Shown here: in pieces, positions 4-14,689 of the stretch | Position numbering within the stretch: position 1 is the stretch's first letter | How the letters are laid out: every line of letters begins with the position of its first letter | NCBI RefSeq assembly: GCF_000297495.1 | Contig: NZ_ALWX01000068.1 | Coordinates: 1-64,000 of the forward strand | Source of the DNA: Janibacter hoylei PVAS-1 | GTDB lineage: Bacteria > Actinomycetota > Actinomycetes > Actinomycetales > Dermatophilaceae | Length of the DNA stretch: 64,000 nt | Reading direction: 5' to 3' | The notes under the pieces: generated by a model | The model's input: the letters and a program-made list of their open reading frames with translations, nothing else | Databases searched by the model: none | What the model was told of the DNA's origin: nothing | Made by a program: the position numbers and the translations under genes

Positions 4-816
4 TCACGCCGCGAGCGATAGCCGCCCAGAACGTGACTCGGTCCTGCCGCCACGCGACCGAGGGCCGTCCCGGTGACGGGATCTGTCCTCGATACGCACG
101 GACCCGCTTCTGCCGTGGGGTTGTTCCCATCGCTTCACCTCTCGATCAAGGTGTTGCGACGACCGGTTGAATTCGCCTTGCGAGCCTCGGTCGCTGTGCA
201 CGATGCACCCGGCCACGTCGGCGCCGTCAGCGGCGCGGCGTGCGACGGCTGAGTTCAGCGCGGTGACAGCCAGGTGCGACGTCATGCGTGAGTCGATGCT
301 GTAGCCCACGATCCGCCCGGAGCAGGCGTCCTTGATCGCGCAGAGGTACAGCTTGCCCTCACCGGTCCAGTGCTCAGTAATGTCGGTCAGCCACACCCGA
401 TTCGGTGCCGCCGCGCTGGTGAAGTCATGCGTGACGCGGCCCACCTCGTCCTCGACCGCGAGCCGGCCATCGTGCACCGGTGGTCCGGGCCGCGGACGGG
501 CCGAGCGCTTCTTCCCGAAGATCGACCACCAGGCGTTCGCTGAGCAGATCCGCCACGCCGTGCGAGCCGACATGCCCGTCCCGGCGTCGGCGGCTTCCTC
601 GTGGAGGTATCGGTAACCGAAGGCGGGGTCATCACGGTGAGCGTCGAACAACGCGTTCGCGCGATGCGCCCACGCCAGCTCGGAGGCGGTGACCGGGGAC
701 GTGAGCCACCGGTAGTACTGCGTACGACACAACTTCAGCACCCGGCACGTCACCGACACAGGCACCCGGATCCGGGCTCCCTTGCCAGCCAGCTCGCGGA
801 CGAGCGGGAACATCAT
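4..816 (-). CDS. IS3-family transposase OrfB (DDE integrase core). The C-terminal ~55 aa are atypical, and the third catalytic E is not recognisable.
   Basis: 'VWLTDITEH...GKLYLCAIKDACSGRIVGYSIDSRM...HSDRGSQ' matches the D..D part of the DDE core. The sequence after HSDRGSQ diverges from the expected SMSRKGN..DNA..ESFF pattern. The copy is probably 3'-degenerate or truncated. Confidence 0.7.
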   Translation of the reverse strand: MMFPLVRELAGKGARIRVPVSVTCRVLKLCRTQYYRWLTSPVTASELAWAHRANALFDAHRDDPAFGYRYLHEEAADAGTGMSARTAWRICSANAWWSIFGKKRSARPRPGPPVHDGRLAVEDEVGRVTHDFTSAAAPNRVWLTDITEHWTGEGKLYLCAIKDACSGRIVGYSIDSRMTSHLAVTALNSAVARRAADGADVAGCIVHSDRGSQGEFNRSSQHLDREVKRWEQPHGRSGSVRIEDRSRHRDGPRSRGGRTESRSGRLSLAA

Positions 817-1142
817 TTTGGGGGCAGGTTCGCCTGCGACAAGTACGCCGCCGCGCGCCGCAACACCTCGTTCTCTTGCTCCAGCAATCGGTTACGGCGC
901 TCGAGCTCACGCAGCTCGGCTGCCTGCTCACTCGTCACGGCCGGCGCGGTGCCGTCCTCGACGTCGGCGCGTTTGAGCCAGTTGGTCAGGCACGACTCGC
1001 TGATCCCGAAGTCAGCAGCAATCTGCTTCAACTGCTGACCCGGCTCACGGTTGCGAGCGACCCGCACGACATCGTCACGAAACTCTTTGGGGTAGGGCTT
1101 GGGCACGGTGTCCATCCTTCCAGCAGCGTCCCTCGACGCCAC
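813..1142 (-). CDS. IS3-family transposase OrfA (HTH).
   Basis: 109 aa. Contains '...LKQIAADFGISESCLTNWLKR...' HTH and a coiled-coil 'ELRELERRNRLLEQENEVLRRAAAYL' typical of IS3 OrfA. Its stop overlaps the orfB ATG (CCCCCAAAATGATG). Confidence 0.8.
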   Translation of the reverse strand: MASRDAAGRMDTVPKPYPKEFRDDVVRVARNREPGQQLKQIAADFGISESCLTNWLKRADVEDGTAPAVTSEQAAELRELERRNRLLEQENEVLRRAAAYLSQANLPPK

Positions 1143-1238: not shown

Positions 1239-3206
1239 TCAGGGTGCCTGGTCCGCGTCGTCGGCTGGGTCATCTACCGTCGGTTCGGACGTTGACGGCC
1301 CTGTGGCTGGCCATCTCTCGGACACGGCCCAGGTCGTGAGTGCAGCGAGTCGCTCCTCGATGGCCTTAGCGGTCCAGCTGGGCCATTTCTCGGCGACCTC
1401 GCGTTCGCTCGCCAAGGCTGCTGTGAAGTAGCACGGGGGCTGCGTCTGACCGGTCTTGCCGCGTTTCTCGACGTACTCCTTGTTGCTGTAGGAGCTGTTG
1501 TCCATCGTCAGAATCAAGTTGCCCAGCGAATGCGTGTGACTCTTTCGCTCATCGTCACTGAAGATGTCCCGCCAAGACCCCGCGTAAGTGGGCGACGCTT
1601 TGTCGATGTCTTTCGGGTTGCGGGGCAGGATGTGCTCGGTGGTCTTCTCAAAGTTCTTCGTGAAGGTCTCGAACGGCTTCAGTACGGCGACCGTCTTCCC
1701 CTTCGACAGTTCGTACTCATAGAGGACATACTTGTGGGAGCTCCGCACATACCAGTTGGTCTCCACCGTGAGGTTGTTTCGCACGAGGCTGTCCGGTGCG
1801 TACTCCCAGGTCAGTGAACCGACTCGCGTGACGGCGTCACCGATTGAGGTCGATCCCTTAAAGACCTGATGCGCCAGACCAGCCAGAGCCTGCCTGCCCG
1901 CGCCGGATCTACGCGCGCAGATGGCAAAAACGCGTGCCGCGAAGGTTTCGCACGCGACGAGTACATCTGCGTAGCCGGCGGCGTTGCCGGGGGACGCCAG
2001 ACGGGTCGCGAACAGTAGGGGGAGGAACTGAGCAACGACCCCGCTGCGGACAAGAGCTTGCGAGTTCCTGGACACGCGAGCGATGTCCGCGGGGTCGGCT
2101 GTCGACGATGCGAATGCTGTTGAGGTCCCCTCCAGATCGCGAAGGAACGCAGAGCATTGCCAGAGCTGGTCGACGTAGTCGGAGACGTCGTCGAACAGCC
2201 GCTGCCGCATTGCTTCTGGGTCGGTCCTGTCGCCTGCATCGTCATCGCGGAGGCGTTGAGAGCCGTGAACGTAGTGCGTACGTGGGAACTTCTTCTTGAT
2301 CGACTCAGACCGCTCCCACAGGCGGATGTTCGGCTCCTGGGTGGCTAGCCAGTGTGAACGGAGGAGTCGGTCCTCGCTGTCGGACGGGAGTCCAGCCAGG
2401 TTCTTGAACACGCCCGACCATCGTTCGTTGATCAGATCCGCGAGCTTCGTTCTGCGAACGTCGTCGAGCTGGGACGCGAGGTAGAGAAGGTAATTCTTGA
2501 TCTTCTCAAGATCGGTGAGGAGGATCCCGCGGTCGTTGAGCGTCTCGAAGATGACGCCCACTTCGGCAGTCGACTTGATCGGATAGACAAGCAACTGGAG
2601 ACCGGACGTGAGGCGGCGCCGGAGGTCCAGCAGGCGCCCTGCGGCGACTTCAGGTGCTGCACCCTCCACGAGTTCCACGAGTCGCTGGTCAAAGAAGGTC
2701 GCGGCACGGAGCAACCTGCGTGCAGACGCGATGGGGTCACTGGGTGCCGGAAGGTCTTCAATGATGTGATCGCGCCAGAAGCCTCGGAGGTCTGTCCCTA
2801 GTTGGAGCCGTGGCTCCTGCGTGCCCAGAAGTTGAATGCGCACGAGGGCGCCGATCTGACGCTTGGCTTCGAGTACGCCATCAGCCAGTCCCTCGTCCGT
2901 GACGCCCTGAATCTGGTCGAGTGCCTTCGCCAGACGAGTCATGAGGATCGTTACGGTCGTGAGACGCTGCTGACCATCGACGACCTCGTACTCCTTCAGA
3001 GTCTCGCCAGCTGACGTGGTCTTCTTATGTCCGGTCTCTCGCAACACCAGCGTGCCGGCGAAATGTTCGCCATCGCCAAGCAGGTCAAGGTCGCCCCACA
3101 GGTCGCCAAGTTGCTTGTCAGTCCAAGCGTACGGCCGCTGGTAGTCCGCAATGACGAAGGTCTTGTCGTCGAGCGCCTTTTTCAGCGACTCGTGTTCCTG
3201 CGGCAT
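1239..3206 (-). CDS. DUF262 (ParB-like, DGQQR) plus DUF1524 (His-Me/HNH-like) nuclease. This is a GmrSD-family type IV restriction-like protein.
   Basis: N-terminal 'IADYQRPYAWTDKQLGDLW...DGQQRLTT' (DUF262). C-terminal '...HILPRNP...HSLGNLILT' (DUF1524). The start was chosen at M58 of the 712-aa ORF (ATG at 3204-3206) because the upstream extension overlaps the macro gene. Confidence 0.75.
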   Translation of the reverse strand: MPQEHESLKKALDDKTFVIADYQRPYAWTDKQLGDLWGDLDLLGDGEHFAGTLVLRETGHKKTTSAGETLKEYEVVDGQQRLTTVTILMTRLAKALDQIQGVTDEGLADGVLEAKRQIGALVRIQLLGTQEPRLQLGTDLRGFWRDHIIEDLPAPSDPIASARRLLRAATFFDQRLVELVEGAAPEVAAGRLLDLRRRLTSGLQLLVYPIKSTAEVGVIFETLNDRGILLTDLEKIKNYLLYLASQLDDVRRTKLADLINERWSGVFKNLAGLPSDSEDRLLRSHWLATQEPNIRLWERSESIKKKFPRTHYVHGSQRLRDDDAGDRTDPEAMRQRLFDDVSDYVDQLWQCSAFLRDLEGTSTAFASSTADPADIARVSRNSQALVRSGVVAQFLPLLFATRLASPGNAAGYADVLVACETFAARVFAICARRSGAGRQALAGLAHQVFKGSTSIGDAVTRVGSLTWEYAPDSLVRNNLTVETNWYVRSSHKYVLYEYELSKGKTVAVLKPFETFTKNFEKTTEHILPRNPKDIDKASPTYAGSWRDIFSDDERKSHTHSLGNLILTMDNSSYSNKEYVEKRGKTGQTQPPCYFTAALASEREVAEKWPSWTAKAIEERLAALTTWAVSERWPATGPSTSEPTVDDPADDADQAP

Positions 3207-3207
3207 G

Positions 3208-3663
3208 TCAGTGAATCCAATCTTCGGCTTGGCTCGCCAGCGAGCGAGCGATCGCGGCATAGGTGGGCTGGCCGAATGCGACCAGGCGGGCTTCATCAAC
3301 AGCACTGGACGCAGCGTTGAGCGCCTCCACCGCCGCGGCGATTGCGTCTTCCTTCGGCCAGCCGTAGGTATCAGCACTGACTAGGGGGAAGGCGACACTG
3401 CGGGCACCGAGCTCGTCCGCGTGCCCCAAGGCACGCGTGTAGCGCGAGGTCAGGTGGTCTCGGTCGGTCTCGCCTGCCATCGTCCATCCGGTGTCGCCGG
3501 CGTCCAGTCCGTTGGGAAAGCGGGTGATGTAGTCCTCGGGGATCGCCGAGCCACCAGCCGTATGGATCGCCCCATCGACGCCTCGTATTCGCCGGTTTGC
3601 CGCGTTGACGACCGCATCCACCTCCTGGGTGGTGATGTCTCCCTCTACGACGGTGATCAACAC
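3208..3663 (-). CDS. Stand-alone macro domain protein (151 aa).
   Basis: 'VVEGDITTQEVDAVVNAANRRIRGVDGAIHTAGG' and '[29 protein letters not shown]' are macro-domain motifs. Its stop (TGA at 3208-3210) overlaps the GmrSD ATG as ATGA, implying translational coupling. Confidence 0.8.
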   Translation of the reverse strand: MLITVVEGDITTQEVDAVVNAANRRIRGVDGAIHTAGGSAIPEDYITRFPNGLDAGDTGWTMAGETDRDHLTSRYTRALGHADELGARSVAFPLVSADTYGWPKEDAIAAAVEALNAASSAVDEARLVAFGQPTYAAIARSLASQAEDWIH

Positions 3664-3860
3664 GCCGGCAATACTAGTGGGAACCGCCGACAGCGCGAGG
3701 ACGAGTTTGCGTTTCCCGAGCCTTCCTTCTTGACCACACCGCGCGTCCTCTTGGGCAGGTCAATCGGTGGCTGGTAGTCGTCGATGCGGTCGTAGACGTC
3801 GTAGTTGAGACTGCGCTCGGCGAGTTCTATATGCCCTTGGGTGGCGGCGACCTTGATCAG
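3664..3860 (-). pseudogene. Start-less ORF fragment immediately upstream of the macro gene, likely a degraded upstream gene.
   Basis: The minus-strand frame reads 'LNLIKVAATQGHIELAERSLNYDVYDRIDDYQPPIDLPKRTRGVVKKEG...' and is preceded by an in-frame stop. There is no ATG or GTG start. It ends at the macro start. Confidence 0.3.
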
Positions 3861-4800
3861 GTTGAGTCAGTTGACCTCGTCCTACGGCGCTGCCTCACAG
3901 GCGATCCCTGAGGCCACCTGGCGGTGTCGAGGTGGGACTGGGCTTGGCTGCGACAGCGACGATGTGGGCGCATGCGCTCGACGATTTCGTGGAGCTGGTT
4001 GCCCTCGGAGAGCCACGCCCACCCGTCCTTGCGGGGGTTGCTGATCGGCTTCCTGGCCACGAGACTGAGCTCGAGCTTCAGGCCGTTGATCCCGTCCGCT
4101 CCGCAAGCTTGGCCTCGGGCTCTCAGGAGGCGGAAGAGAGCTACGTCGACGAGGAGACCGTGCAACGTATAGCCGTTGTCGACAACGTTCTCCGGCGTGT
4201 TCAGGCAGCTTCTCGGTGCATGAGTTCGCCCGTGCGAGGGTCCGCGCCGAACCAGTCCCGGATCGTGCTCAGGTCGGTGCGCTCCCGGGACCGCTTGATG
4301 CCGGACGCCGCGGCGAGGTTGCGGTTGAAGACGCGCTCGGGGTGGAGCGAGAGATCGTCGACGGTGCGCCACGGGCCCGAGGTGCGGGTCGTTTCTCCTG
4401 CGGTTACAACGCCGCGTCTGCGGCTTCCCAGGCACCTGCTCCTTCGGTGTGTGCTCATCCTCGTTTCCAAGGTCACGAGCCTCTATAGGGCCGAGTGCGG
4501 TTCAAAGGTCGACGCGCAGGTCACCATAGCTTCGACGGTGGCGACCGCGCTATCGACATGATCGGCTGAAAGGTCGTCTAGACAGGGTGCGCAGAGTCCC
4601 TGTCCTCGACCGCCCGTGTGACTGCTGCCCCTCGTCGAGTGGCGCTGTACGGCCCTTCCTATTGGGTGGCAGGAGGCACGGTTCATGCCCGAGATGGACC
4701 TACCAGCCGAAGCACCCGTGACCGAGGCTTCACCCCGTCTGGAGACGGACGACGAGTTCGCAGCGGCGTAAGGCGAGTGATGGCGGAGGAGATCGGTGCA
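3857..4800. other. Decayed, lower-GC region carrying only short ORF fragments on both strands, with no intact gene.
   Basis: Fragments such as '...SNPRKDGWAWLSEGNQLHEIVERM...' and '...ERVFNRNLAAASGIKRSRERTDLSTIRDWFGADPRTGELMHREAA' have no recognisable full domain. GC is visibly lower than in the core region. Confidence 0.3.
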
Positions 4801-4821
4801 GTTGTTGTCCGCCGGGCGCAT

Positions 4822-5412
4822 TCAAGCGGAATCGAGGGCTTGCTGAGCAACACTTCGAGATGAGGCCCACGTCTTGTGTGCCATACGAAGGCCGAGCCGC
4901 TGCGACATCCGAGGGTGCTCGCGCTCCATTCGTGTGTAGGCCGACTTTAAGTTGGTCGTGTACAGCAGATCGCGCAGGAGCAGGACCTCGAACGCGGCCG
5001 CCTCGACGAAGTCCACCGTCTTGGTGTACCCGACGACTGCCCTGGCGTTGGTGGCCCGACAGAGGTCTATGAGCTCTTGATCCTTGGCGGCCATCGTCGA
5101 GCACGAGGCGAAGAACAAGACCTTGTCCTCACACCTGCTCCCGAGAATCTCAGCGAACTCCTTGATCGTCACGCCTTCATCGCCGAACCAGAGCTGCCCA
5201 CGAGCGCCGTGACAGACGAAGTAGCCGATGGGCATCGAGGTGAGCCGACGCCATTTCTTTGCATAGAACTCGAGGGCGTCCCTTGTCGCGACGTTGCGGT
5301 GGACGTAGGGGGTCCCTTCGCAGTCCTGGAGAAGGCCGAGCACTGGCTCGACGGTCCGTCGGTCGCGGGCAGGGCCCCATTCACCTTCGAAGCAGTAGAT
5401 CCCTTGTGCCAT
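4822..5412 (-). CDS. Hypothetical protein with a caspase/hemoglobinase-fold-like (clan CD) His...Cys arrangement.
   Basis: 196 aa. A beta-strand then HG ('IGYFVCHGARG') is followed ~35 aa later by a hydrophobic strand plus Cys ('KVLFFASCSTM'). This mirrors the caspase 'SHG ... QACRG' order. It lies in the lower-GC island. Confidence 0.3.
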   Translation of the reverse strand: MAQGIYCFEGEWGPARDRRTVEPVLGLLQDCEGTPYVHRNVATRDALEFYAKKWRRLTSMPIGYFVCHGARGQLWFGDEGVTIKEFAEILGSRCEDKVLFFASCSTMAAKDQELIDLCRATNARAVVGYTKTVDFVEAAAFEVLLLRDLLYTTNLKSAYTRMEREHPRMSQRLGLRMAHKTWASSRSVAQQALDSA

Positions 5413-5516
5413 GTATGAACACTTGTGGTCCCTCGGTGGGGTGTCAAACGCTCAGCCGGATCATTGTCGGTGGTCCCACCTACGCTGTGGAGCAGGTCGA
5501 CGGAGGGGAGTGGCTG

Positions 5517-6386
5517 ATGTTCGATCAGCGGGTCGAGGCAGCGTGGAGGGACTTCCACGAGCGTCTCGTGGTGGCCATCGAACGGTTCGGCGAGGGCGAG
5601 ATCTTCCGGATCTCACTCGACCGCACGAGCGTCTACGAGGCGGGGGACGCTCCCTTCGTCGAGCTCAACGTCGTCCTGCCGCAGGTGCTCGTCGAGGTCG
5701 CCTCCAACATGACCTTGGCTCGTACGTGGCGCATGAGTCGCACCCAGCAGGCGAGGGTCCGCCGGCTGGGCATGGCGTGCCCGACGCGGCAGGAGCCGAC
5801 CTACGGCAAGTACTACGACATCACGCGGCCCGACGAGGCGGCCGCTGCGGTTATCACGGCACTGCGCGAAGGGTTCGGTGTCCTCGACCCGGCGCTCCTC
5901 ACCAGCCCGAGCCCCGTCCTGACTCCACCCACGCGCGAGCCCTGGGAGACCAGCCCGCTGCTCGCCGACGGCGCCCGACCCACCAGCCGGGCAGAGGTCA
6001 ATGCCCTCGTCGCCATCGCCCTTCGCCCGCTCGTGGGTGAGGTGGACACCACGGATGACGGTGACGCCATCGTCCACTTCCCCGGCACGTCGATCCTGGT
6101 GCGGCCGTCGAGGCGCGCACCGCGCATCCGCATGTGCTGCACGCTGCCGCACCACGAGCGTGACCTCGACGAGGCCACCCGGATCGCCCAGCGGCTCAAC
6201 GGGTGCATGCACGCGCTCAAGTTCGTCGTGCTCGACGACGAGGACTTCCTCGTCATGGTCGACATGCTCGCCAGACCCTTCGTGCCCGAGCACGTGCTGG
6301 AGCACGTGGAGCACCTCTTCCGGATCATCGACGGCTGGGAGGACGAGTTCCTCCCCGAGGCGCGCGATCGACAGGAGACGACGTGA
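5517..6386 (+). CDS. Tandem YbjN/T3SS-chaperone-like ('TY-Chap') domain protein.
   Basis: 289 aa from ATG 5517. It has two similar halves with an acidic C-terminus. Its stop overlaps the GTG of the next gene (GTGA), indicating an operon. Confidence 0.4.
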   Translation: MFDQRVEAAWRDFHERLVVAIERFGEGEIFRISLDRTSVYEAGDAPFVELNVVLPQVLVEVASNMTLARTWRMSRTQQARVRRLGMACPTRQEPTYGKYYDITRPDEAAAAVITALREGFGVLDPALLTSPSPVLTPPTREPWETSPLLADGARPTSRAEVNALVAIALRPLVGEVDTTDDGDAIVHFPGTSILVRPSRRAPRIRMCCTLPHHERDLDEATRIAQRLNGCMHALKFVVLDDEDFLVMVDMLARPFVPEHVLEHVEHLFRIIDGWEDEFLPEARDRQETT

Positions 6387-7849
6387 GCGAAGCCACCACC
6401 ACGACGAGACTGCGCTGCGACCGCTGCGGGTCCCACGCCACCCACCAGCGCGTCATGGGGATGCCCACCGCCGAGACGGCAGAGCAGGTCGCGGCCACGC
6501 CGTGGCAGCGGCTCGGTGGGTGTCTGATCGTGCCGGGCATGTGGACGGTCGAGTGCCTGACCTGCGGTCAGCGAGAGGCGGTCGAAGGGGGCCCAGCCGA
6601 CCTCATGCCGGCGCCGCCACCCGACTGCACCGTCGCCCGGGCGATCACCCGGTACGCCGCTCGCTGCCGCGAAAAGCTCGGCCAGGCGACGACCTCCGTC
6701 GTCTCCCACGCCGGGCTGTGGCTGCTTCTCGCCTCCGTCGCTGAGCACGTCACCGGCGACGACCGCGCCGTGCTCGAGGAGATCCTTGGCATGCCGGTCG
6801 GGGAGGCGAGTGCTGCCGCACGTCGGCTGCTCGGCGCACCGCACCCGACCCTCGCTGCTGCGGCTGGAGCCTGGGTTGCGGGGGATGCGGTGACACCCGT
6901 CGGGGTGGAGCGGCCGATCCCTGACCAGGCCCGGCTGGATGCGTGGGCGTCAGAGCGCACACGCGGACTCATCCCGCAGTTCCCACTCGAGGTCACCGAG
7001 CTGACCCGCATCGTGCTGGCGACGGCGCTCGTCCTCGAGCCACAGTGGACCGAGCAGCTCACCACCGGTGGCGGCGGCCAGTGGTTGAGGCTCGGTGGGG
7101 GCCTGCAGACGATCGTCGAGACTGCCGCTGCCGGGGCCGTCCTCGTGGCCAAGCCGCACTCCGAGGACGGCATCGACGTCATCAGCGTGCGCGCTCACCC
7201 GAGGGTCGCTCCGGCGCAGGTCTGGCAGGCCGTCGACGAAGTCGTGGCGCTGCTGGACGACGGCGCGCTGTGGCACGGCGAGCGACCGCACGGGTTGCCG
7301 CGCCGGGGATTCGGCTGGCGGTCCAGGGCAGCGCGGGTGCAGATGACCGACTTGGCGCGCGCAGAGTTGCCGACCGACGCCTGGGGGAGGCCGCAGCAGT
7401 GGCGCAGCCAGGTGCCGTCGTGGTCGGCTCAGGAGACGCTCGACCTCACCGAGGCGCCCGGCGTCGCCGAGGCCGGCCACGCGATCCTGCCCGACGAGCC
7501 TGGCGCGGCGACGAGCTGCGTGCAGTCGGTGCGGGCGGAGTACGACGCCGACGGGTTTCGGGCGGCTGCGCTCACGGCGCTGGACCGGGTTGGGTCCGCG
7601 CCGAGCTTCGAGCAGGTGGACGTGGAGCGGGTCGATCTCGACTTCCGTGCCCCGCACGCCGTCGTAGCCGTCGCTCGCGGGGGAGCGTGGGAGGGCGTGC
7701 CGCTCGTCAGCGCGTGGGTGCCCGGACCCAACTACATGGACTCCGACGGGGAAGCCCTGGAGCTGCTGGCAGAGACCGACCCGGACGAGGCTGCCGCGCT
7801 GTCGGCCTACAAGGAGGCGCGGATGCGGGAGCGTGGCGAGATCGTGTGA
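6383..7849 (+). CDS. Serpin-fold protein with an N-terminal C4 zinc-ribbon.
   Basis: N-terminal 'RCDRCGSH...ECLTCGQ'. The body matches the serpin layout. 'SHAGLWLLLASVAEHVTGDDRAVLEEILG' is helix A. 'ATALVLEPQW' resembles NAIYFKGKW. The hinge-like 'DGFRAAALTAL' is followed by 'FRAPHAVVAVARG...VPLVSAWV', which resembles FxxDHPFLFxI...LFMGRV. Confidence 0.5.
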   Translation: MSEATTTTRLRCDRCGSHATHQRVMGMPTAETAEQVAATPWQRLGGCLIVPGMWTVECLTCGQREAVEGGPADLMPAPPPDCTVARAITRYAARCREKLGQATTSVVSHAGLWLLLASVAEHVTGDDRAVLEEILGMPVGEASAAARRLLGAPHPTLAAAAGAWVAGDAVTPVGVERPIPDQARLDAWASERTRGLIPQFPLEVTELTRIVLATALVLEPQWTEQLTTGGGGQWLRLGGGLQTIVETAAAGAVLVAKPHSEDGIDVISVRAHPRVAPAQVWQAVDEVVALLDDGALWHGERPHGLPRRGFGWRSRAARVQMTDLARAELPTDAWGRPQQWRSQVPSWSAQETLDLTEAPGVAEAGHAILPDEPGAATSCVQSVRAEYDADGFRAAALTALDRVGSAPSFEQVDVERVDLDFRAPHAVVAVARGGAWEGVPLVSAWVPGPNYMDSDGEALELLAETDPDEAAALSAYKEARMRERGEIV

Positions 7850-7882: not shown

Positions 7883-8523
7883 ATGTGCGACGTTGAGTCC
7901 ATGGACGTCCTGCCGATGTTCCCCCTCGGGACGGTGCTGTTGCCCGGGCAGCCCCTGCCGCTGCAGGTGTTCGAGCCGCGCTACCTGACGATGCTGCGCG
8001 ATGTCGCGGACGGCGACGGGCGCTTCGGGGTAGTGCTCATCGATCGGGGCTTCGAGGTCGGTGGGGAAATCAGCGCTTCGCTGTCGGGTGCGTCGCGAGC
8101 ATCGAGCAGGTCCGGCCGATGGGCGGAGGTCGGGTCGGTCTCATCGCTCGCGGGCAGGAGCGCATCGAGGTCGCCCGGTGGCTGCCCGACGATCCCTATC
8201 CGCGAGCCGAGATCACGCGCCTGCCGGACCTGACGTGGGCCGACGGCGACGCCCCGCGCCTGGCCGAGACCGAGCGGACCGTGCGACGCGCGCTCACGGT
8301 GATGAGCGAGTACCGCTCGCCGGCCCTGCCCGCGGACATCGAGCTGGCCGACGACCCGGTCACCCGCAGCTGGCAGTTGGCATGGATCGCCCAGCTCGGC
8401 GCCCTGGACCAGCTCACGCTGCTGCGGTCGTCGTCCCTCGGCGAGCTGCTCGAGACCACCGCGCGCCTCACGAGCGAAGCCCTCGAACTGCTGCCGCTCC
8501 AGTCACCCGACAATCCCGACTGA
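7883..8523 (+). CDS. LON N-terminal (substrate-binding) domain protein, interrupted by one frameshift near 8085.
   Basis: 'MFPLGTVLLPGQPLPLQVFEPRYLTMLRD' is the LON-N signature. The protein continues in another frame ('...RVGLIARGQERIEVARWLPDDPYPRAEI...') after a G-run (gtggggaa). Confidence 0.65.
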
Positions 8524-8559: not shown

Positions 8560-10050
8560 TCAGCCAGCGTCGACGAAAAGGGGCCGCGACGCCTCACCCG
8601 AGGCCAGCACCTCACCCATCGTGCGGTACTCACCCCGCGCGAGCACCTCGTCGAGCTTCGCCTGGTCGACGAGGTGCGCCGACTGCAGCTCACCACCGGC
8701 GAACTGCAGCAGCGACCCGACCGGCAGCGCCAGGTAGGGGCCAAAGGTGCGGTCGCACGCCTGCAGCTCGCCCGCGTCGATGTTGCGCAGCGCGCGCTCC
8801 TCGTCGGTCTGGGCCGACGGTGTGACGATCGACCACCCGGACCGCCGCGTGCCGTCGGTGAGGGTGTCCGTGCCGGGATCGAGCTCGTAGCGCTCCATGA
8901 TGAAGGCGCTGGGCTCACCCAGGACGATCGCGTCGAGCGCGGCCGACTGGATCGCGATGGTCTCGGTGGCCCTGACCGGCGCCGCGTCGACGCCTGCCTG
9001 GCGAGCCTTTTGCACCTGCTCGACCTGCCAGATGAGGGCGCCGGTGAGGTCGTCGGTCGTCCTCTCCCGATAGGCCTCGGGAGAGGAGAAGTCCGGCGTC
9101 GTGACGAGGAGGACGCCCCCTTCGTCCGTGGCCTCGAGCGTGTACGGCGCATACGACATCTGCAGCCGGGCGCCCGGCTCCAGCGGACCGGCCGCGCCGG
9201 CGGCGAAGGCCATGAGGACGCTGCCGGCGAGCGGCGCGAGCTGCGGGTGGGTCCGCGCGCGCAGGGTCACGCCGTCGACGACCTCTTCGATCGTCTCGGT
9301 GGTGGGTGCCGCCGGGCTCCTCTCGCCGATGGGAGCGCCCGCGCCGCGACCGTCGGCGTCGAGCAGTTGCCGGTCCGCATCGGTGACGGTGCCATCGGCG
9401 GACCGCGTCGCCCAGGCGCCGACGAAGCGGCCGCCGGCGACCCGCGCCACCGTCCCCGTGGGCAGCGTGAGCAGGGGCACGAGGTAGGGGGCCGACTGCA
9501 CGAGCAGCCCGGCGAGGACCTCAACCTCCTTGTTGCGCAGGAAGGACTTCTCGGCCGTGCGCACCAGCCAGCCGGAGTCGTCCTCCGACGTCGACGGGCG
9601 CCGCACGAGGACGAGCTCGTCGGTCCGGCCCTTTTCGACCACCGTCAGGGCCGCCTTGGTGAAGTGCACCCGCATCGACAGGTCGATCTCCTCGCCGTCG
9701 ACGTCCGCGCGGCTGAGCACGTCCGCCTGGGCGGCCTCGATCCACAGCGCGAGCGTCAGGTCGTCGGTCGTGGCGTCGACGAAGTCTTCCGCCGCGTAGT
9801 CCGGCGCCGTGATCGCGAACTGCGTCTCCCGGTCCTGCCGCAGCTGCCAGAAGGTGAAGCCCACACCGGTCCGCAGCCGGTCGCGGGTCTCGCCGGCCTC
9901 CTGGTAGCGGCGGTAGCGGTCGACGACCGGCCGGGCGAAGGGAGCCACCTCACCCGCGCAGCGCAGCGTCGCCACGGTGCCACCACCGAGGTCGACGGCG
10001 GGCTGGGGCTCGGGCTGGGTCGACGGGAGGGGGAGCGGGAAGGTCGTCAT
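8560..10050 (-). CDS. Hypothetical protein (496 aa) with internal ~150-aa repeats.
   Basis: Repeated motif 'SGW.V.T.....L.N.....L......PYL.LP.G'. No recognisable catalytic motifs. Confidence 0.5.
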   Translation of the reverse strand: MTTFPLPLPSTQPEPQPAVDLGGGTVATLRCAGEVAPFARPVVDRYRRYQEAGETRDRLRTGVGFTFWQLRQDRETQFAITAPDYAAEDFVDATTDDLTLALWIEAAQADVLSRADVDGEEIDLSMRVHFTKAALTVVEKGRTDELVLVRRPSTSEDDSGWLVRTAEKSFLRNKEVEVLAGLLVQSAPYLVPLLTLPTGTVARVAGGRFVGAWATRSADGTVTDADRQLLDADGRGAGAPIGERSPAAPTTETIEEVVDGVTLRARTHPQLAPLAGSVLMAFAAGAAGPLEPGARLQMSYAPYTLEATDEGGVLLVTTPDFSSPEAYRERTTDDLTGALIWQVEQVQKARQAGVDAAPVRATETIAIQSAALDAIVLGEPSAFIMERYELDPGTDTLTDGTRRSGWSIVTPSAQTDEERALRNIDAGELQACDRTFGPYLALPVGSLLQFAGGELQSAHLVDQAKLDEVLARGEYRTMGEVLASGEASRPLFVDAG

Positions 10051-10116: not shown

Positions 10117-10726
10117 TGCGACGAAGGAGCCTCGAAGCCATTCGACCCCCGAGCGTTGTCGGTGGCCGCACCTGGTGTTGACCTCGTCGGTGGAGGACGA
10201 AGGGGAGTGGCGATGAGTGATCTGACGAAGAGCACGAGCAGCGGCCTCGGTGCGGGCCAGCTGGCCGAACTGACCCTGCGGGGTCTAGAGCAGTGGCGGA
10301 GCGCGCCCGGCAAGAGTCACTGCGCACCGGTGGCTCCGGCCCCGGGTGGCCGGGTCGGAGATCCTGCCCGACGATGCGGTGACCGGCTGGACCGGGGCCC
10401 GCACCCCGAGTGGTGACTCGACGAGCTGCTCTAGGGCGTCAGCCGCGACCTCGTCCCTTGTTGCGCAGCGGCAGGGTGAAGCGGTCGAGGTCCTGCCCGA
10501 TCGTCACCTTGCCGCGGTAGCCCTTCTGCGCATCGCGGCGGCATTGGTTCTTGTCGACCTTGGCCGCGCCGAGCCCGGCCCCCCTTCACGCCGATCGCCT
10601 CGTGCACGAGCAGGTCCGTGCGCTCGGCCATTTCGATGAGGCCCTGGTGATGTGGGGGCAGGACGTGGCTGTCGGAGGGCGACGCGCTGCACCTGATCTG
10701 AACCATGATTCACATATAGTGGACCC

Positions 10727-11035
10727 ATGATCAACGTCGTCGCCCGCATCTCCGCCAAGCCCGAGTCCACCGACGCCGTCGAGGCCGCCGTCGCCGCGGC
10801 CCGCGGCACATTCCTCGCCGACGAGGGGTGTCTGCGCTACGACCTCCAGCGCGTCGCCAAGAGCGAGGGTGACTACATCCTCCTCGAGGCCTACGACTCC
10901 ACGGAGGCGCTGAAGCGGCACGGCGAGATGGACGCCTTCGCTGACTTCAGCCAGGCCGTCGCGCCGCACCTGCTCGCTCAGCCCGAGGTCATCGTGCTCT
11001 CGCCCGTCGGTGACCAGGTCGATCTCGCGGTCTGA
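10727..11035 (+). CDS. Antibiotic biosynthesis monooxygenase (ABM/Dabb) domain protein.
   Basis: 102 aa, 'MINVVARISAKPES...YILLEAYDSTEALKRHGE', the typical ABM fold. Confidence 0.7.
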   Translation: MINVVARISAKPESTDAVEAAVAAARGTFLADEGCLRYDLQRVAKSEGDYILLEAYDSTEALKRHGEMDAFADFSQAVAPHLLAQPEVIVLSPVGDQVDLAV

Positions 11036-11039
11036 GGTC

Positions 11040-11300
11040 AGCCGCGCCTGGCCCGTTCGGCGAAGACGTCGAGCGCCGACGTCACCTGCGGAGCCGCCCA
11101 CCCGACGTCGACGCTGCAGGCCCACCGCCTTGGTGACGACGCCAGCGTCACGCCGGCGCGCGATGACGGCGTCTACGGCCGGCTGTGACAGACCCAACTC
11201 GCGCTGAACCATCGCCGATGTGATCGCTGGCTGCCGAAAGAGCAGCGCCGGCCAGATCGCCACCGTCCGGCGGGCCCAGATCGCCGACACCCAGCCCTCT
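11040..11300 (-). pseudogene. Remnant of a small HTH transcriptional regulator.
   Basis: 'ITSAMVQRELGLSQPAVDAVIARRRDAGVVTK' is a winged-helix HTH. It has no clean start and shifts frame before a stop at ~11038. Confidence 0.3.
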
Positions 11301-11308
11301 GGATCTCG

Positions 11309-11632
11309 ATGAGGTCGCCGTCCCGGTGTGTCATGTACCAGCAGGCGCAGGAGGGCGGCGACTTCGAGTACCTGCCGGGGCTGCGCTCCGGCGACGACGA
11401 GAACCATCCGAGCGTCCAACGAGTGCTGCAGGGAGACCGGACCAGCCTGCAGGTCCTGCCCAGTGCTGCCGGCACCCTGGCCTTCTTCCGCGGCGAGTGG
11501 GCCCTGCACCGGGTGACCCCGATCAGGGGTACGAGGCCACGGATCAACTCTGTCCTCACCTGCGGTGAGCGTCCCGACATGGTGCTCAACGATCTGACCT
11601 CCGAGTTGTTCTACGGCCGCACGTCGACCTGA
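11309..11632 (+). pseudogene. C-terminal fragment of a 2OG-Fe(II) oxygenase-like protein (N-terminus absent).
   Basis: 'GDFEYLPGLR...GTLAFFRGEWALHRVTPIRG' retains the distal His of the jelly-roll. The upstream half would overlap the ABM gene, so this is a gene remnant. Confidence 0.4.
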
Positions 11633-11635
11633 GCG

Positions 11636-12661
11636 TCACGCCCCCCAGCCCACAAGCAGGACCAGCGCCAGCGAGGTGCCTGCGGCGATGATCGTCGAGA
11701 TCGTCGCGAGGGTGAGCACCTGCAGCGGCAGCGGCCACAGGTCACGGGCGCGGATGCCCATGCCGAGGCCGTACATGCCGGCCGCGAGCAGCAGCGTCGT
11801 CAGCACATCGGCGACCGACAGGACCCCCTGCGGCAGCAGGCCGCTCGTGCGGACCGCGACGGCGACGACGAAGGCGACGATGAACCACGGCACAAGGGGG
11901 GTGGTCGCTCCCTTCGCCCCGGGGGTGGTGCGGGCGAGCACGGCCGACAGCGGTGCGAGCAGGGCGACCCGGCCGAGCTTGACCGTCATGGCCAGCGCCA
12001 CGGCGGACGTGCCGATGAGCGAGCCCGCCGCGGCCACCTGCGCGACCTCGTGGATGCTCGCGCCGGCCCAGATCGCCGCCTGCTCATCGCTCAGGCCGAT
12101 GACTCCCGCGAGCCACGGCACGGCGGCGATCATCGCCGAGCCATAGAGGGTGACCATGGCGACGGCCAGGGCCACGTGCTGCTGCCTGGCCCGGACGGTG
12201 TCCTCGACGGCGGCGATCGCCGCGGCGCCGCAGATCGAAAATCCCGTGGCGATGAGCAGGACCAGCCCCTCCTCGAGGCCGAGGCGACGACCGATGTATC
12301 GCGTCCCCGTGAAGGTCGCGAGCACCGTGACCGCGATGACGACGAGCCCGCTCGGGCCGATCGAGACGATGTCGGCGAAGGGGAGGCGCAGCCCGAGCGC
12401 GGCCACGCCCAGCCGGAGGAGGAACTTCGTGGCGGCGTCGTGACCGGCGATGGCCGGGAGGGTGCCCAGGCGGCTGTTGACCACGACCGCGCCGATGGCC
12501 AGGGCGATGAGCAGGGGGCCGAGCAGCGGGACCACCGTGCTCAGGGCCAACGCCGTTGCGGCAGCGGCCAGCGGCGCGACGAGCGTCGCTGCCGACCGTC
12601 GCTCCCTGAGGAGCTTGCGCAGCAAGCGTCTCGAAGGGGGCCGTCCGGTCATCGTCTGCAT
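11636..12661 (-). CDS. yeiH: YeiH/UPF0324 family membrane protein (putative sulfate exporter).
   Basis: Polytopic membrane protein. Divergent from a LysR regulator, the classic yeiE-yeiH arrangement. Start taken at the internal ATG (MQTMTGRPP). Confidence 0.7.
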   Translation of the reverse strand: MQTMTGRPPSRRLLRKLLRERRSAATLVAPLAAAATALALSTVVPLLGPLLIALAIGAVVVNSRLGTLPAIAGHDAATKFLLRLGVAALGLRLPFADIVSIGPSGLVVIAVTVLATFTGTRYIGRRLGLEEGLVLLIATGFSICGAAAIAAVEDTVRARQQHVALAVAMVTLYGSAMIAAVPWLAGVIGLSDEQAAIWAGASIHEVAQVAAAGSLIGTSAVALAMTVKLGRVALLAPLSAVLARTTPGAKGATTPLVPWFIVAFVVAVAVRTSGLLPQGVLSVADVLTTLLLAAGMYGLGMGIRARDLWPLPLQVLTLATISTIIAAGTSLALVLLVGWGA

Positions 12662-12719
12662 GACCACCACGGTGCCCGTCATCGAGGCCGTCCAGTAGAC
12701 CCCGGTTACGCCACAGGTC

Positions 12720-12734
12720 ATAGTCTTTGGCTAT
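12720..12734. promoter_or_regulatory. LysR-type T-N11-A box ATAGTCTTTGGCTAT in the yeiH/lysR divergent intergenic region.
   Basis: Dyad ATAG-N7-CTAT overlapping the lysR start. Confidence 0.45.
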
Positions 12735-13623
12735 GGCTGAGCTGCCCGACCTCGACATCGAGACCCTCCGGCTGGTCGTCGCCGTGGACGACACCGGGAG
12801 CCTGAGTGCGGCCGCTCGGGCGCGCGGGCTGAGCCAGCCGTCGGCGAGCGCCCGGGTGCGGGCCTTCGAGGCGCGCTGGCAGCTGACCCTGCTCGACCGC
12901 ACCCCCCGAGGCTCGAGGCTGACCACCGACGGTCAGGCCGTCGTGGCCTGGGCACGGCAGGTGCTGCGCGAGGCCGACACGATGCGCTCGGGTCTGGCCG
13001 CGCTGCGCGGGGCCAGGCGGGGCGAGGTGAGCGTCGCCGCGAGCCTGACGATCGCCGAGCACATCCTGCCGCGCTGGCTCGGCGAGCTGCGTGAGCGGCT
13101 CGAGGTCCACCCGCAGCTGCACGTCGTCAACAGCGACCGGGTGGCCGACATGGTCCGCAGCCGGCTCGTCGACATCGGCTTCGTCGAGACGACGATGACA
13201 ACCCCGGGTCTCGAGCACCGCGTCGTCGGCACCGACCGGCTCGTCGTCGTGGTGCCACCCGGTCACGCGTGGGCGCGCCGGCGCTCCCCGCTGACCGCGC
13301 CCGCACTCGGCGCGGCCGAGTGGGTGCTGCGCGAGGAGGGCAGCGGGACCCGCAGCACCTTCGAGCGGGCGCTCGGGCGGCGGCCGACGGTCGCGCTGCA
13401 GGCGGGCTCGACCGCCGCGCTCCTCGGCGCCGTCCGTGCCGGCCTCGGGCCGGCGGTCGTGTCGGAGCGGGCCGTCGCCGCCGAGGTGGACACCGGAGCA
13501 CTGGTCGTCGTGCCGACGACCCTCGACCTCGACCGTCCACTGACAGCGGTGTGGCGCAAGGGTGCTCGAATGAGCACCGCGACGGCGACCCTGCTCGCCG
13601 TTGCCACGGACTCGGCGGGCTGA
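12733..13623 (+). CDS. LysR-family transcriptional regulator.
   Basis: N-terminal HTH 'LRLVVAVDDTGSLSAAARARGLSQPSASARVRAFE' plus a substrate-binding domain. Confidence 0.85.
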   Translation: MAELPDLDIETLRLVVAVDDTGSLSAAARARGLSQPSASARVRAFEARWQLTLLDRTPRGSRLTTDGQAVVAWARQVLREADTMRSGLAALRGARRGEVSVAASLTIAEHILPRWLGELRERLEVHPQLHVVNSDRVADMVRSRLVDIGFVETTMTTPGLEHRVVGTDRLVVVVPPGHAWARRRSPLTAPALGAAEWVLREEGSGTRSTFERALGRRPTVALQAGSTAALLGAVRAGLGPAVVSERAVAAEVDTGALVVVPTTLDLDRPLTAVWRKGARMSTATATLLAVATDSAG

Positions 13624-13908
13624 GCCACCCCTCGTCCCCCGGCGACGGGTAGCGGCACCGTGGCGTAGGCGGCGCACCCCGCCCACGGTGGCCGGACCAG
13701 GACAGCACTGCGGTGGGCTGCCCGGATCGCCGGCGGGCTCGTGGCCCTCCTCGTGTTCCTCCACCTCGCGCAGGGAGTCGTCGACACCCCTCAGATCGCT
13801 GGCGCAGGACGACGCCCGCGAGATGGTCACCCGCCTCGAGACTGCGAGCTGCAGCACGTCGACGAAGCGGCCATGCCGTAGCGGTCGACGACCTGCGAGA
13901 CTCGTGCG

Positions 13909-14559
13909 ATGACGACCCCGCCCGACCTCGAGACCCTCATGTCATCGATCCGGCAGGGCCGGGTCCGCGTCGGCCCACGCACGCGCGCGATCGCGCTGCT
14001 CCTGCACGGCGGTCGTGCCGACGCGACCCAGCCCCGGCGCCATCGCGACATCTCCTACCTGCGCATGCTCCCCTTCGTCACCGCGGTGACCCGAGCCGCC
14101 CGCGGCCGGGTCGCCCCCGTACTCGTGCACAACAGCGACGGGGGATGGGTCGCCCCCTCCGGCAGCGGCCTGCTCCAGACCCGCGAGATCGTCCGCCGCC
14201 TCCACGAGGAGCACGGTCGCCCCGTCGTCCTGCTCGGCCACTCCAGCGGTGGCTGGGCGGCGCTGCGCTGCGGCGGGCAGGACGCGGTGATCGGCAGCGT
14301 CGCCCTCGCGCCCTGGGTGGGTGAGGACGAGACCTACGAGCACCTGCACGATCGGGTCGTTCGGGTGATCCACGGCGAGGCCGACGACGTGTGCAGCCCC
14401 CAACGCTCCCGGGAGCTCGTCGAGCGGCTGCGCGCCGAGGGTGCCGACGCGACCTGGGACGGTGTACCCGGTGGCGGCCACGCGCTGATGGACCGCCCGT
14501 GGAGGTGGCACCGGCTTGCTGCCGACGCCGTGCTCGACGTCGTCGAGCGACGCACCTGA
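13909..14559 (+). CDS. Alpha/beta hydrolase.
   Basis: Nucleophile elbow 'LLGHSSGGWAAL', with the acid and His near the C-terminus. Confidence 0.7.
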   Translation: MTTPPDLETLMSSIRQGRVRVGPRTRAIALLLHGGRADATQPRRHRDISYLRMLPFVTAVTRAARGRVAPVLVHNSDGGWVAPSGSGLLQTREIVRRLHEEHGRPVVLLGHSSGGWAALRCGGQDAVIGSVALAPWVGEDETYEHLHDRVVRVIHGEADDVCSPQRSRELVERLRAEGADATWDGVPGGGHALMDRPWRWHRLAADAVLDVVERRT

Positions 14560-14571
14560 GCACCACGACAT

Positions 14572-14618
14572 GACGAAGGGGGCGGACCGGCCGGTCCGGC
14601 CGGTCCGCCCCCTTCGCC
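14572..14618 (+). terminator. Intrinsic terminator-like hairpin with a perfect 20-bp stem.
   Basis: GAAGGGGGCGGACCGGCCGG-t-CCGGCCGGTCCGCCCCCTTC lies 13 bp after the hydrolase stop. It shares GACGAAGGGGG/CCCCCTTCG ends with the hairpins at 19011 and 61849. Confidence 0.6.
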
Positions 14619-14689
14619 CTCGTCGACTACCGGTCGAGGTCGACGTCACGCGTCTCCTTGGTGAGGATCCCGGTCACGACCTGGGCACG

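Follow-up and report, generated by a model that had tools for sequence, protein, structure and literature searches.

A predicted minimal caspase-fold cysteine peptidase of the DUF6642 family, encoded beside TY-Chap and zinc-ribbon–serpin genes in Janibacter hoylei

The nearest known counterparts of the protein described here include the CHAT proteases of bacterial immunity, among them the SAVED-CHAT proteins of CBASS and type III CRISPR (PDB 8tl0), the TPR-CHAT protein Csx29 of the "Craspase", and DdvA. These enzymes are 470–900 aa long, have SAVED or TPR domains fused to them as sensor or scaffold, and are partnered by cyclic-nucleotide or CRISPR machinery. In contrast, the DUF6642 proteins considered here are about 190 aa in length with no additional domain, and their partners are a Zn-ribbon protein and a TY-Chap protein. 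Compared with the caspases, metacaspases, and legumain (MEROPS clan CD, families C14 and C13), DUF6642 lacks the inter-subunit linker, the prodomain, and the p20/p10 processing site, and has an invariant Glu where caspases have an Arg, if the two positions are equivalent. A further relative, DUF4347 (the Pseudomonas aeruginosa T6SS cargo PA0256/Tce1; PDB 9qpe), occurs as an Hcp-delivered secreted effector or as a module at the N-terminus of giant proteins (PMC8262886), whereas DUF6642 is stand-alone and has no secretion-system context.

TY-Chap families were defined in the ARG-centric "anti-ADP-ribosylation" conflict systems, where TY-Chap3/TY-Chap1 chaperones, macro domains, and restriction-type effectors co-occur in rapidly varying neighbourhoods (Iyer, Burroughs, Anantharaman, & Aravind, 2022; PMC9503650). 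A caspase-like protein, a serpin, and a Zn-ribbon component are all unmentioned in the main text of that study. The window analysed here, a 64,000-nucleotide stretch of the Janibacter hoylei PVAS-1 genome, resembles those systems in holding a TY-Chap3 + TY-Chap1 gene and differs in lacking the ARG core gene and NrtR: across its 64 kb, an HMM built from the ARG proteins of two related loci (L097 and L098) detected no ARG glycohydrolase, and an NrtR HMM no NrtR regulator. Serpins, for their part, inhibit caspases, as exemplified by poxvirus CrmA. The window is akin to CrmA and to the prokaryotic serpins tengpin and thermopin, both among the structural matches of its own serpin, in that a serpin fold adjoins a caspase-fold gene and in the small residues at P12–P10. 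Its serpin differs from them in being cytoplasmic, in its N-terminal Zn-ribbon and invariant Phe at P14, and in falling below the Pfam Serpin threshold.

The features of the locus are as follows.

1239..3377, minus strand: GmrSD-type (DUF262/DUF1524) type IV restriction enzyme (Pfam GmrSD_N, GmrSD_C; PADLOC HEC-06, Orf5), in the same low-GC island as the DUF6642 gene.
3208..3663, minus strand: macro-domain (ADP-ribose-processing) gene with an apparent internal deletion (Pfam Macro; two pieces in NCBIfam).
4745..4821, no strand: point at which synteny with the 96%-identical contig L094 stops and the DUF6642/TY-Chap module meets a variable flank (blastn).
4822..5412, minus strand: DUF6642 gene with ATG start, 196 aa, predicted minimal caspase/CHAT-fold (clan CD-like) cysteine peptidase.
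5101..5103, minus strand: C104 codon; the Cys, in an SC motif that follows strand beta4, is predicted to be catalytic.
5209..5211, minus strand: H68 codon; the His, in an HG motif that follows strand beta3, is predicted to be catalytic.
5386..5388, minus strand: E9 codon; the Glu, invariant like H68 and C104, sits at the C-terminal end of beta1 (alignment; modelled strand 5–9).
5413..5516, no strand: 104-bp intergenic region common to the DUF6642 gene and the divergent TY-Chap operon (sequence).
5517..6386, plus strand: first gene of the operon, a 289-aa two-domain TY-Chap3 + TY-Chap1 (T3SS-chaperone/YbjN-like) protein (Pfam).
6383..7849, plus strand: second gene of the operon, a 488-aa Zn-ribbon–serpin fusion, GTGA-coupled to the TY-Chap gene (profile, model, Foldseek).
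6383..6600, plus strand: N-terminal Zn-ribbon ("ZnR") domain, CxxC...G[ML]P...GGC...CxxCG (alignment).
7553..7627, plus strand: serpin hinge (G391 F392 xAAA) and reactive-centre-loop equivalent, residues 402–415 (alignments, model).

An earlier sequence-only reading had singled out the 196-aa ORF for the ordered His...Cys signature of clan CD peptidases. The ORF is as it described, and the signature is, to judge from its conservation, not a chance occurrence: the motifs "IGYFVCHGARG" and "KVLFFASCSTM" begin at residues 62 and 97 and place H68 and C104 36 residues apart. In an alignment of 124 DUF6642 family members, most of them 26–50% identical to the window protein, E9, H68, and C104 are the sole invariant columns, and the H68–G69 pair is, like C104, invariant or near-invariant. 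Along its entire length, the protein matches Pfam PF20347 (DUF6642; E 6.5e-11, 42.6 bits vs. a gathering threshold of 27), residues 4–177 covering positions 3–180 of the 182-position model. The family comprises 1,425 clusters at 50% identity, nearly all stand-alone proteins of 180–210 aa, from Actinomycetota, Acidobacteriota, Gemmatimonadota, Verrucomicrobiota, Planctomycetota, Myxococcota, and Bacteroidota, and a literature search on DUF6642 returned no relevant paper. A phage origin was ruled out, with only 1 match in 2.9 million viral contigs.

The window protein has no match to Pfam CHAT (PF12770) at E ≤ 0.1, none to Pfam Peptidase_C14 or C13, and none among PDB chains in a plain sequence search. 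Some DUF6642 members give weak CHAT and DUF4347 matches in Pfam, and the CHAT profile reaches two relatives below the cut-off (P0018, E 0.055; P0065, E 0.16). When a profile was searched against PDB sequences, 21 of the 22 sub-threshold matches were caspases or legumain, with caspase chains at E 0.012–1.6; in these alignments, H68 falls on the His of caspase-3 "SHG" and legumain "NHG", and C104 on the Cys of caspase "QAC" and legumain "EAC". A comparison by hhalign with a caspase-3 sequence yielded a weak, short local alignment around the His only (probability 29%), in agreement with these other results.

The sequence-only reading would have been refuted by a predicted non-caspase fold or by a His and Cys that vary among homologues, and neither was observed. 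The AF2 model (pLDDT 86.4, pTM 0.87) has the complete order of elements, beta1-alpha1-beta2-alpha2-beta3-(H)-alpha3-beta4-(C)-alpha4-beta5-alpha5-beta6, in an alpha/beta/alpha sandwich with caspase-type strand order, and every one of its best 50 Foldseek matches (50/50) belongs to clan CD. A caspase/CHAT (clan CD) fold with a conserved His and Cys is thus well supported by model and alignment together. Peptidase activity is predicted from this, and the topology of the clan suggests E9 as a residue of the S1 pocket.

Could such a Cys–His dyad serve some chemistry other than endoproteolysis? It might instead catalyse transpeptidation or ligation, for which legumain-type ligases and GPI transamidase are precedents, or remove a non-peptide protein adduct such as one derived from ADP-ribose. 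ADP-ribose-processing genes (ARG, NrtR, or macro) do adjoin some DUF6642 loci, with the ARG/NrtR "anti-ADP-ribosylation" genes in L003, L005, L024, and L119. However, the ARG association is limited to these few loci, and we know of no clan CD member that acts on non-peptide bonds. We regard this alternative as very improbable.

The surroundings of the gene suggest a mobile island. The lower-GC character remarked on in the sequence-only reading is borne out, the DUF6642 gene having 61.4% GC vs. 71.2% for the window; it lies in a low-GC stretch (1239–5516, 61–65% GC) beside an IS3 transposase. The GmrSD enzyme of this island also adjoins DUF6642 in L004, L009, and L121, and close DUF6642 homologues are flanked by GmrSD, McrBC, BrxD/Cas3-like, and helicase genes; one locus (L106) is situated between a relaxase and an integrase. 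Synteny with L094 (positions 1–1071 of that contig aligning with 5820–4745 of the window by blastn) takes in only the DUF6642 gene and the 5′ part of the TY-Chap gene, and stops 77 bp past the DUF6642 stop codon. Downstream of the DUF6642 gene, the 1.16 kb from 3664 to 4821 contain neither a supported gene nor anything similar to the neighbours in related loci. PADLOC (PADLOC-DB 2.0), NCBIfam, and PHROGs gave no match for the DUF6642, TY-Chap, or ZnR-serpin proteins.

On the other side of the gene, the divergent operon on the plus strand stands as originally reported, with one correction: the gap is 104 rather than 105 bp, and the first gene encodes the TY-Chap protein, the serpin coming second. 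The former scores 3e-15 to PF22552 (TY-Chap3) and 3.5e-15 to PF22551 (TY-Chap1), and its ATG at 5517 is preceded, 8 nt ahead, by the Shine-Dalgarno-like motif GGAGGGGA. The coupling of the two genes consists of a GTGA overlap (GTG at 6383, TGA at 6384–6386). No sigma-70-like promoter, terminator, or inverted repeat was detected in 5413–5516, and a metagenome scan using the TY-Chap alignment gave no confirmed relative.

How general this arrangement is was assessed in 160 DUF6642 loci from genomes and metagenomes. None of the neighbours is universal among them: clustering all ORFs of 80 genome loci by BLAST revealed no universally conserved neighbour (the big "clusters" were the gene's own shadow ORFs), and no single Pfam family dominates the 143 genes surveyed directly beside DUF6642. 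These flanking genes are varied, many of them of the housekeeping type (UvrB, PNPase, dehydrogenases), and only about a tenth match defence models. A majority of the 160 loci have neither ZnR nor TY-Chap; the module is therefore confined to a subset of the family, and the DUF6642 protein must be able to manage alone.

Within that subset, the DUF6642 gene is linked to ZnR and TY-Chap genes. Among the partners that recur with DUF6642, ZnR is the most specific: its motif is present in 19 of 17,792 ORFs, within DUF6642 loci always at most 1.1 kb from the DUF6642 gene, and it adjoins that gene in about nine independent contexts (the window, L085, L089-91, L101, L074, L106, L120/121, L144/146). In L076, ZnR and DUF6642 are fused in one ORF. 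The TY-Chap gene, which recurs in the DUF6642 subfamily closest to the window protein, is divergent from or adjacent to DUF6642 in the window, L085, L089-91, L094, and L101; the DUF6642 protein of L101 is just 30% identical to that of the window, and the gene order there is different. A three-way fusion hinted at by weak BLAST similarity was unsupported; the middle parts of the L076 fusion and of the ZnR protein in L106 were rejected as TY-Chap homologues, with an hhalign probability of ≤1%.

These neighbourhoods bear on the proposal that the arrangement in the window is a coincidence, in which DUF6642 would be an autonomous single-gene element inserted in a defence-island hot spot, and the TY-Chap/ZnR-serpin operon a separate ADP-ribosylation-countering system whose serpin targets some other protease, for example one of phage or host. 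Such a reading would account for the solitary occurrence of most DUF6642 members in unrelated contexts, for the step in GC from the DUF6642 gene (61%) to the serpin gene (73%), for the position of the serpin gene at the border of a variable hot spot in J. indicus, and for the ZnR-serpin genes of L097 and L098, which adjoin NrtR and ARG. It sits poorly with the recurrence of DUF6642–TY-Chap–ZnR in at least five contexts with varied flanks and gene orders, at identities down to 30%, and with the fusion of ZnR to DUF6642 in one instance; co-residence in islands alone does not explain this recurrence and fusion. We consider coincidence distinctly unlikely.

The second gene of the operon brings in the serpin. 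Its N-terminal ZnR domain carries cysteines C12, C15, C47, C58, and C61 of the fusion protein. In support of the serpin-fold neighbour announced from the sequence, its family profile matches serpins alone (36 matches, best 2e-5, in collinear segments), and Foldseek with the AF2 model (pLDDT 82.7) returns serpins at E 4e-17 and TM 0.6–0.69 (PAI-1, CBG, conserpin, tengpin). The window's protein has no match to PF00079 (Serpin) at E ≤ 1; many homologues have a precomputed one. Profile and model together thus identify the neighbour as a genuine but divergent serpin fold. The hinge, placed by the homologue alignment and by alignments with the hinges of PAI-1 and antiplasmin, has Gly at P15 and Ala-Ala-Ala at P12–P10; P14, where Thr/Ser is usual, is invariably Phe. 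Loop 402–415 has low pLDDT, is disordered in the model, and varies between homologues, a picture that resembles cleaved or latent serpins; across genera without an adjoining DUF6642, the reactive loop is fairly conserved.

It is tempting to read the two proteins as a protease/inhibitor pair, in which the ZnR-serpin, tethered to the DUF6642 peptidase through the Zn-ribbon, would serve that enzyme as cognate suicide inhibitor or as decoy substrate. Cleavage of the reactive loop would trap the peptidase, and a trigger that removes the serpin would free it. A true serpin fold lies next door, with a small-residue hinge (GFxAAA) modelled as inserted into sheet A; its operon and the peptidase gene share the 104-bp divergent control region; its ZnR domain is the very partner that recurs with DUF6642 and is fused to it in L076; a serpin-gene remnant abuts a DUF6642 gene, 50% identical, in L092; and CrmA provides precedent for caspase inhibition by a serpin. 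The distribution of the serpin speaks against a pair. Apart from the L092 remnant, none of the 160 other DUF6642 loci has a serpin next to the gene; the ZnR-serpin genes of three other genomes (L095-L098) have no DUF6642 within 9 kb, and Nocardioides has serpin-like homologues without ZnR. Moreover, the first gene of the operon encodes a chaperone-like protein, and GC content and synteny suggest a resident serpin beside which a DUF6642/TY-Chap pair was inserted. The Phe at P14 and a P1 that is probably small (Gly/Ser) offer no obvious fit to a Glu-containing pocket. Literature searches combining serpins with anti-phage or conflict systems found nothing relevant. On balance, we judge a dedicated pair to be unlikely, although it retains some plausibility.

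The interpretation that we favour, and hold to be somewhat better than an even bet, is that of a mobile conflict module built around a minimal cysteine peptidase, which is controlled by way of its ZnR partner and accompanied by TY-Chap. The DUF6642 protein would be a cytoplasmic, single-domain cysteine peptidase of about 190 aa with the caspase–haemoglobinase fold, nearest to bacterial CHAT domains, with H68 and C104 as its catalytic dyad and with E9, where beta1 ends, as a contributor to the S1 pocket. Itself devoid of sensor and regulatory domains, it would operate, in the lineage of the window, within a small mobile conflict (defence-island) module together with a ZnR partner and a TY-Chap peptide-binding protein. 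The ZnR protein may be the direct partner of the peptidase, whether as regulator, anchor, or substrate, and the TY-Chap chaperone may keep hold of this partner or offer substrates; phage infection or a similar trigger would then set the peptidase free to cut proteins of the cell or of the virus. In the window, the ZnR partner would be a ZnR-serpin fusion resident in Janibacter genomes, which probably entered the module through recombination at the ZnR-coding region, and its serpin portion could restrain the peptidase by serving as a suicide substrate. Taken to its full extent, as a new bacterial immune or conflict module of DUF6642, ZnR(-serpin), and TY-Chap in which a host-encoded, cytoplasmic, ZnR-tethered serpin brakes a caspase-like executioner, the proposal is speculative and in our estimation improbable.

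For the large DUF6642 family, a caspase/CHAT fold that is pared down yet complete, and that keeps its dyad intact, provides a testable biochemical identity, and its members would rank among the smallest caspase-fold enzymes known. The recurrent linkage of DUF6642 to ZnR, to T3SS-chaperone-like proteins, and, in the window, to a cytoplasmic serpin suggests a new mode of control for a bacterial caspase-like protease. It also extends the TY-Chap/ARG conflict systems, a prediction of 2022, by three unreported components: the peptidase, the Zn-ribbon, and the serpin. Should the serpin indeed regulate the peptidase, this would be the first bacterial control of the serpin–caspase type, a prokaryotic counterpart that follows CrmA-like logic but is host-encoded.

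The 196-aa reading frame at 4822-5412 (minus strand, ATG start), which a sequence-only reading had singled out as a caspase-fold-like protein in lower-GC DNA beside a divergent serpin operon, is present as described. It carries the proposed His...Cys signature, 'IGYFVCHGARG' from residue 62 and 'KVLFFASCSTM' from residue 97, with 36 residues from H68 to C104, and its GC content is 61.4% against 71.2% for the window. The gene shares a 61-65% GC stretch (~1239-5516) with a GmrSD-type restriction gene and a macro-domain gene, and this stretch is adjoined by an IS3-family transposase. The divergent plus-strand operon likewise exists, starting at 5517, 104 bp away, behind a GGAGGGGA Shine-Dalgarno-like motif; its first gene, however, encodes a TY-Chap protein, and the serpin-like gene comes second. 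The locus and other features of the window are as follows.

4-1142 (-), IS3-family transposase (orfA, HTH_Tnp_1, 813-1142; orfB, rve, 4-816), left edge of the low-GC island
3208-3663 (-), macro-domain gene with a two-part match to YmdB-type O-acetyl-ADP-ribose deacetylase models, the parts being separated by a gap of ~40 residues; possibly degenerate; as listed, it runs into the GmrSD ORF at the 5′ end of the latter
3664-4821, 1.16 kb downstream of the DUF6642 gene in which the GC3 frames shift, no ORF has Pfam support and nothing resembles the neighbours in related loci; since synteny with locus L094 stops at ~4745, this is probably decayed DNA left where recombination joined two segments
4822-5412 (-), DUF6642 gene
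5517-6386 (+), TY-Chap3+TY-Chap1 protein of 289 aa, T3SS chaperone/YbjN relatives (Pfam 3e-15 and 3.5e-15)
6383-7849 (+), serpin-like gene, its GTG start overlapping the TY-Chap stop codon (GTGA)
7883-8233 and 8119-8523 (+), two overlapping ORFs that between them span positions 1-69 and 79-194 of the Pfam profile for the N-terminal substrate-binding domain of Lon protease; apparently a split or frameshifted gene
8560-10050 (-), 496-aa protein with two Imm33-like (immunity-protein-like) domain matches, just past the serpin and Lon-N genes
29000-31200, local drop in GC to 0.65, where ORFs of 520-540 aa overlap on the two strands and none has a Pfam match; may be a further acquired segment
55583-56515 (+), second macro-domain protein, 310 aa, distant from the island

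The 196-aa protein matches Pfam DUF6642 over its full length (E 6.5e-11, above the curated cut-off); none of the literature searched mentions the family. A word-indexed search returned only ten close relatives; a profile search of 1.84 billion representative proteins recovered 1,425 clusters (952 at E <= 1e-10), nearly all stand-alone proteins of 180-210 aa and essentially missing from phages. Among the rare multidomain members, P0030 carries an N-terminal region of 210 aa whose 'EVK' motif recalls PD-(D/E)xK nucleases and P0102 has three ~70-aa C-terminal repeats ('YRVGDxVxAxYDG'), both extensions being without a Pfam match. Among 124 aligned members, the majority 26-50% identical to the query, only E9, H68 and C104 are invariant, and W12, G69 and G128 are kept in at least 90%.

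A confident AlphaFold2 model built on close relatives (pLDDT 86.4, pTM 0.87) shows a full caspase-type order, beta1-alpha1-beta2-alpha2-beta3-[H68 G69]-hairpin-alpha3-beta4-[C104]-alpha4-beta5-alpha5-...-beta6, in which the invariant E/H/C triad lies at the C-terminal ends of beta1, beta3 and beta4. When the family profile was compared with PDB sequences, 21 of the 22 matches at E <= 10 were caspase-3/6/7-type or legumain chains, the family 'HG' aligning on the catalytic 'SHG'/'NHG' and 'gsC' on 'QAC'/'EAC'; a profile-sequence comparison with caspase-3 aligned the His likewise, though with low probability, and a few members have sub-threshold Pfam CHAT or DUF4347 matches. Neither a non-caspase fold nor unconserved His/Cys, the two findings that could have told against the original proposal, therefore emerged, and we assign both the caspase/CHAT-like fold and the conserved dyad of His and Cys with high confidence; the observation is real and its structural interpretation confirmed.

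Because beta1 stands at the very start of the protein and a signal peptide is absent, as read from the sequence, the protein should be cytoplasmic. In clan CD enzymes the S1 pocket is formed partly by the loop after beta1, so E9 is the predicted specificity residue. The protein fails the sequence-profile membership tests of both Pfam CHAT and Peptidase_C14, and only DUF4347 is comparable in size; DUF6642 is most aptly seen as a minimal family of its own within the clan CD fold, predicted to work like a CHAT or caspase-type peptidase. Peptidase activity is probable, and the protein would be an active cysteine endopeptidase; non-endopeptidase chemistry is very improbable.

Genomic context was sampled from 80 genome and 80 metagenome loci with DUF6642 relatives, plus the contigs of the closest homologues. 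No neighbour is universal: BLAST clustering and Pfam and PADLOC censuses of 143 immediate neighbours yielded no dominant family, and these neighbours range over UvrB, PNPase, dehydrogenases, PIN-PhoH, OLD-like ATPases, BrxL, GmrSD, Mrr and DpdE, about one-tenth having a defence-related look. In the closest subfamily, TY-Chap recurs: the window, L094 (97% identical protein), L089-91 (67%) and L085 (52%) all have it upstream of DUF6642 in divergent orientation, the other flank changing from locus to locus (GmrSD plus macro, SHOCT plus helicase, etc.). Around P0004 and P0002, an EcsC-like protein replaces TY-Chap, with McrBC or BrxD/Cas3-like genes nearby. The gene after TY-Chap in L085 and L089-91 is a stand-alone Zn-ribbon (ZnR) of 75-81 aa, homologous to the N-terminus of the window serpin gene. 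Searching from the ZnR side found L101, where McrBC, a 216-aa protein, DUF6642, TY-Chap and ZnR share a single strand, its DUF6642 only 30% and its TY-Chap 48% identical to those of the window.

Of the 17,792 ORFs in all fetched loci, 19 carry a strict ZnR motif, which in DUF6642 loci (window, L085, L089-91, L101, L106, L120/121, L144/146) is always within 1.1 kb of the DUF6642 gene. L106 is flanked by relaxase and integrase; in L144/146, from a non-actinobacterial lineage, ZnR comes together with an unknown domain of 250 aa and is divergently placed, 34 bp away. By HMM, ZnR heads a three-gene same-strand cluster in L074 and, in L076, is fused through a ~100-aa linker to DUF6642 in one 364-aa ORF. 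This specific, repeated linkage makes mere coincidence of the neighbours quite improbable; a functional link of ZnR and TY-Chap with DUF6642 is slightly favoured.

Directly after the L076 fusion lies a 492-aa Sel1-repeat protein (3449-4927, +) with a weak 'papain-fold toxin, glutamine deamidase' match. A small CxxC-containing family, 's89', stands beside ZnR or ZnR-serpin genes (L101 6279-6545, L097 8609-8926, L089 210-509; 50% identity between L101 and L097); absent from the window, it may be a fourth module component.

The serpin fold claimed for the neighbour is borne out. The 488-aa product falls below the Pfam Serpin threshold, and a single-sequence search gave weak PAI-1 matches at the hF/s3A motif and hinge. 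Homologues are numerous, at 58-79% identity in Janibacter and 42-51% in mycobacteria and Nocardioides, many with a precomputed Pfam Serpin match or a 'serpin' name in UniRef. The 36 PDB matches of a 38-sequence profile at E <= 0.01 (best 2e-5) were all serpins, aligned in collinear segments, and the AlphaFold2 model (pLDDT 82.7) matched serpins at Foldseek E 4e-17 and TM 0.6-0.69; since the model has residues 391-400 as an inserted strand, cleaved or latent conformers matched best. The hinge sequence is YDxxG-F-x-A-A-A-[VL]-T-A: P15 Gly and small P12-P10 residues are in keeping with loop-inserting serpins, and the invariant P14 Phe is atypical. The first ~75 residues form the separate ZnR (CxxC...G[ML]P...GGC...CxxCG). 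A 98% identical protein, P0161, is named 'Helicobacter pylori DUHN55_37640' by NCBI; all other close relatives being Janibacter, its assembly is very likely mislabelled or contaminated, and the window itself probably stems from a Janibacter-like actinobacterium.

The original proposal was that this serpin may inhibit the DUF6642 protease. L092 offers a hint of such a link, a serpin-like remnant spanning the hinge surroundings directly after a 50%-identical DUF6642 gene. Serpin link SPECIFICALLY: the ZnR-serpin genes of J. indicus, J. cremeus and Mycolicibacterium acapulense lack DUF6642 within 9 kb, and their surroundings are of defence or ARG type (type I R-M, DUF4917, Wadjet; or NrtR, TY-Chap, ARG). 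DNA comparisons matched the window to J. indicus over the serpin gene and the Lon-N-like gene downstream of it, and to unrelated contigs over the DUF6642/TY-Chap pair; the two synteny partners change over at the TY-Chap/ZnR junction, with another breakpoint 77 bp beyond the end of DUF6642 at its stop codon, and GC climbs from 61% (DUF6642) through 69% (TY-Chap) to 73% (serpin). Most simply, recombination at the common ZnR sequence would have joined a DUF6642-TY-Chap(-ZnR) module to a ZnR-serpin already resident there. Inhibition by the serpin appears unlikely. In J. indicus (L095, CP062789), an insert at 10457-19112, with a complete Wadjet system (JetABCD) as well as MazE/PIN and an ECF sigma gene, lies between the serpin gene and a homologue of window 8237-8422, and this serpin gene borders a defence-island hot spot; DNA ~72% identical to the window IS3 transposase lies near the J. 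cremeus serpin gene (L097 11277-12245).

TY-Chap families were defined by Iyer et al. in 'ARG-centric' systems (PMC9503650), the main text of which mentions no caspase-like protein, serpin or Zn-ribbon. The window gene set resembles these systems, yet the genes that define them, those for the ARG glycohydrolase and for NrtR, are missing from it; both adjoin DUF6642 in a few loci (L003, L005, L024, L119), L024 having TY-Chap-ARG-DUF6642 on one strand. The DUF catalogue entry, the fold class and protease-based bacterial conflict systems were already known; our searches found no prior description of the minimal stand-alone architecture or of the ZnR/TY-Chap/serpin partnership. The protease/inhibitor idea is refined here into a three-component hypothesis, which we moderately favour as the best explanation overall: the ZnR protein would be the direct partner of DUF6642, as regulator, anchor or substrate, much as shared adaptor domains couple other conflict systems, TY-Chap would hold this partner or present substrates, and the module may act in a conflict or defence setting.
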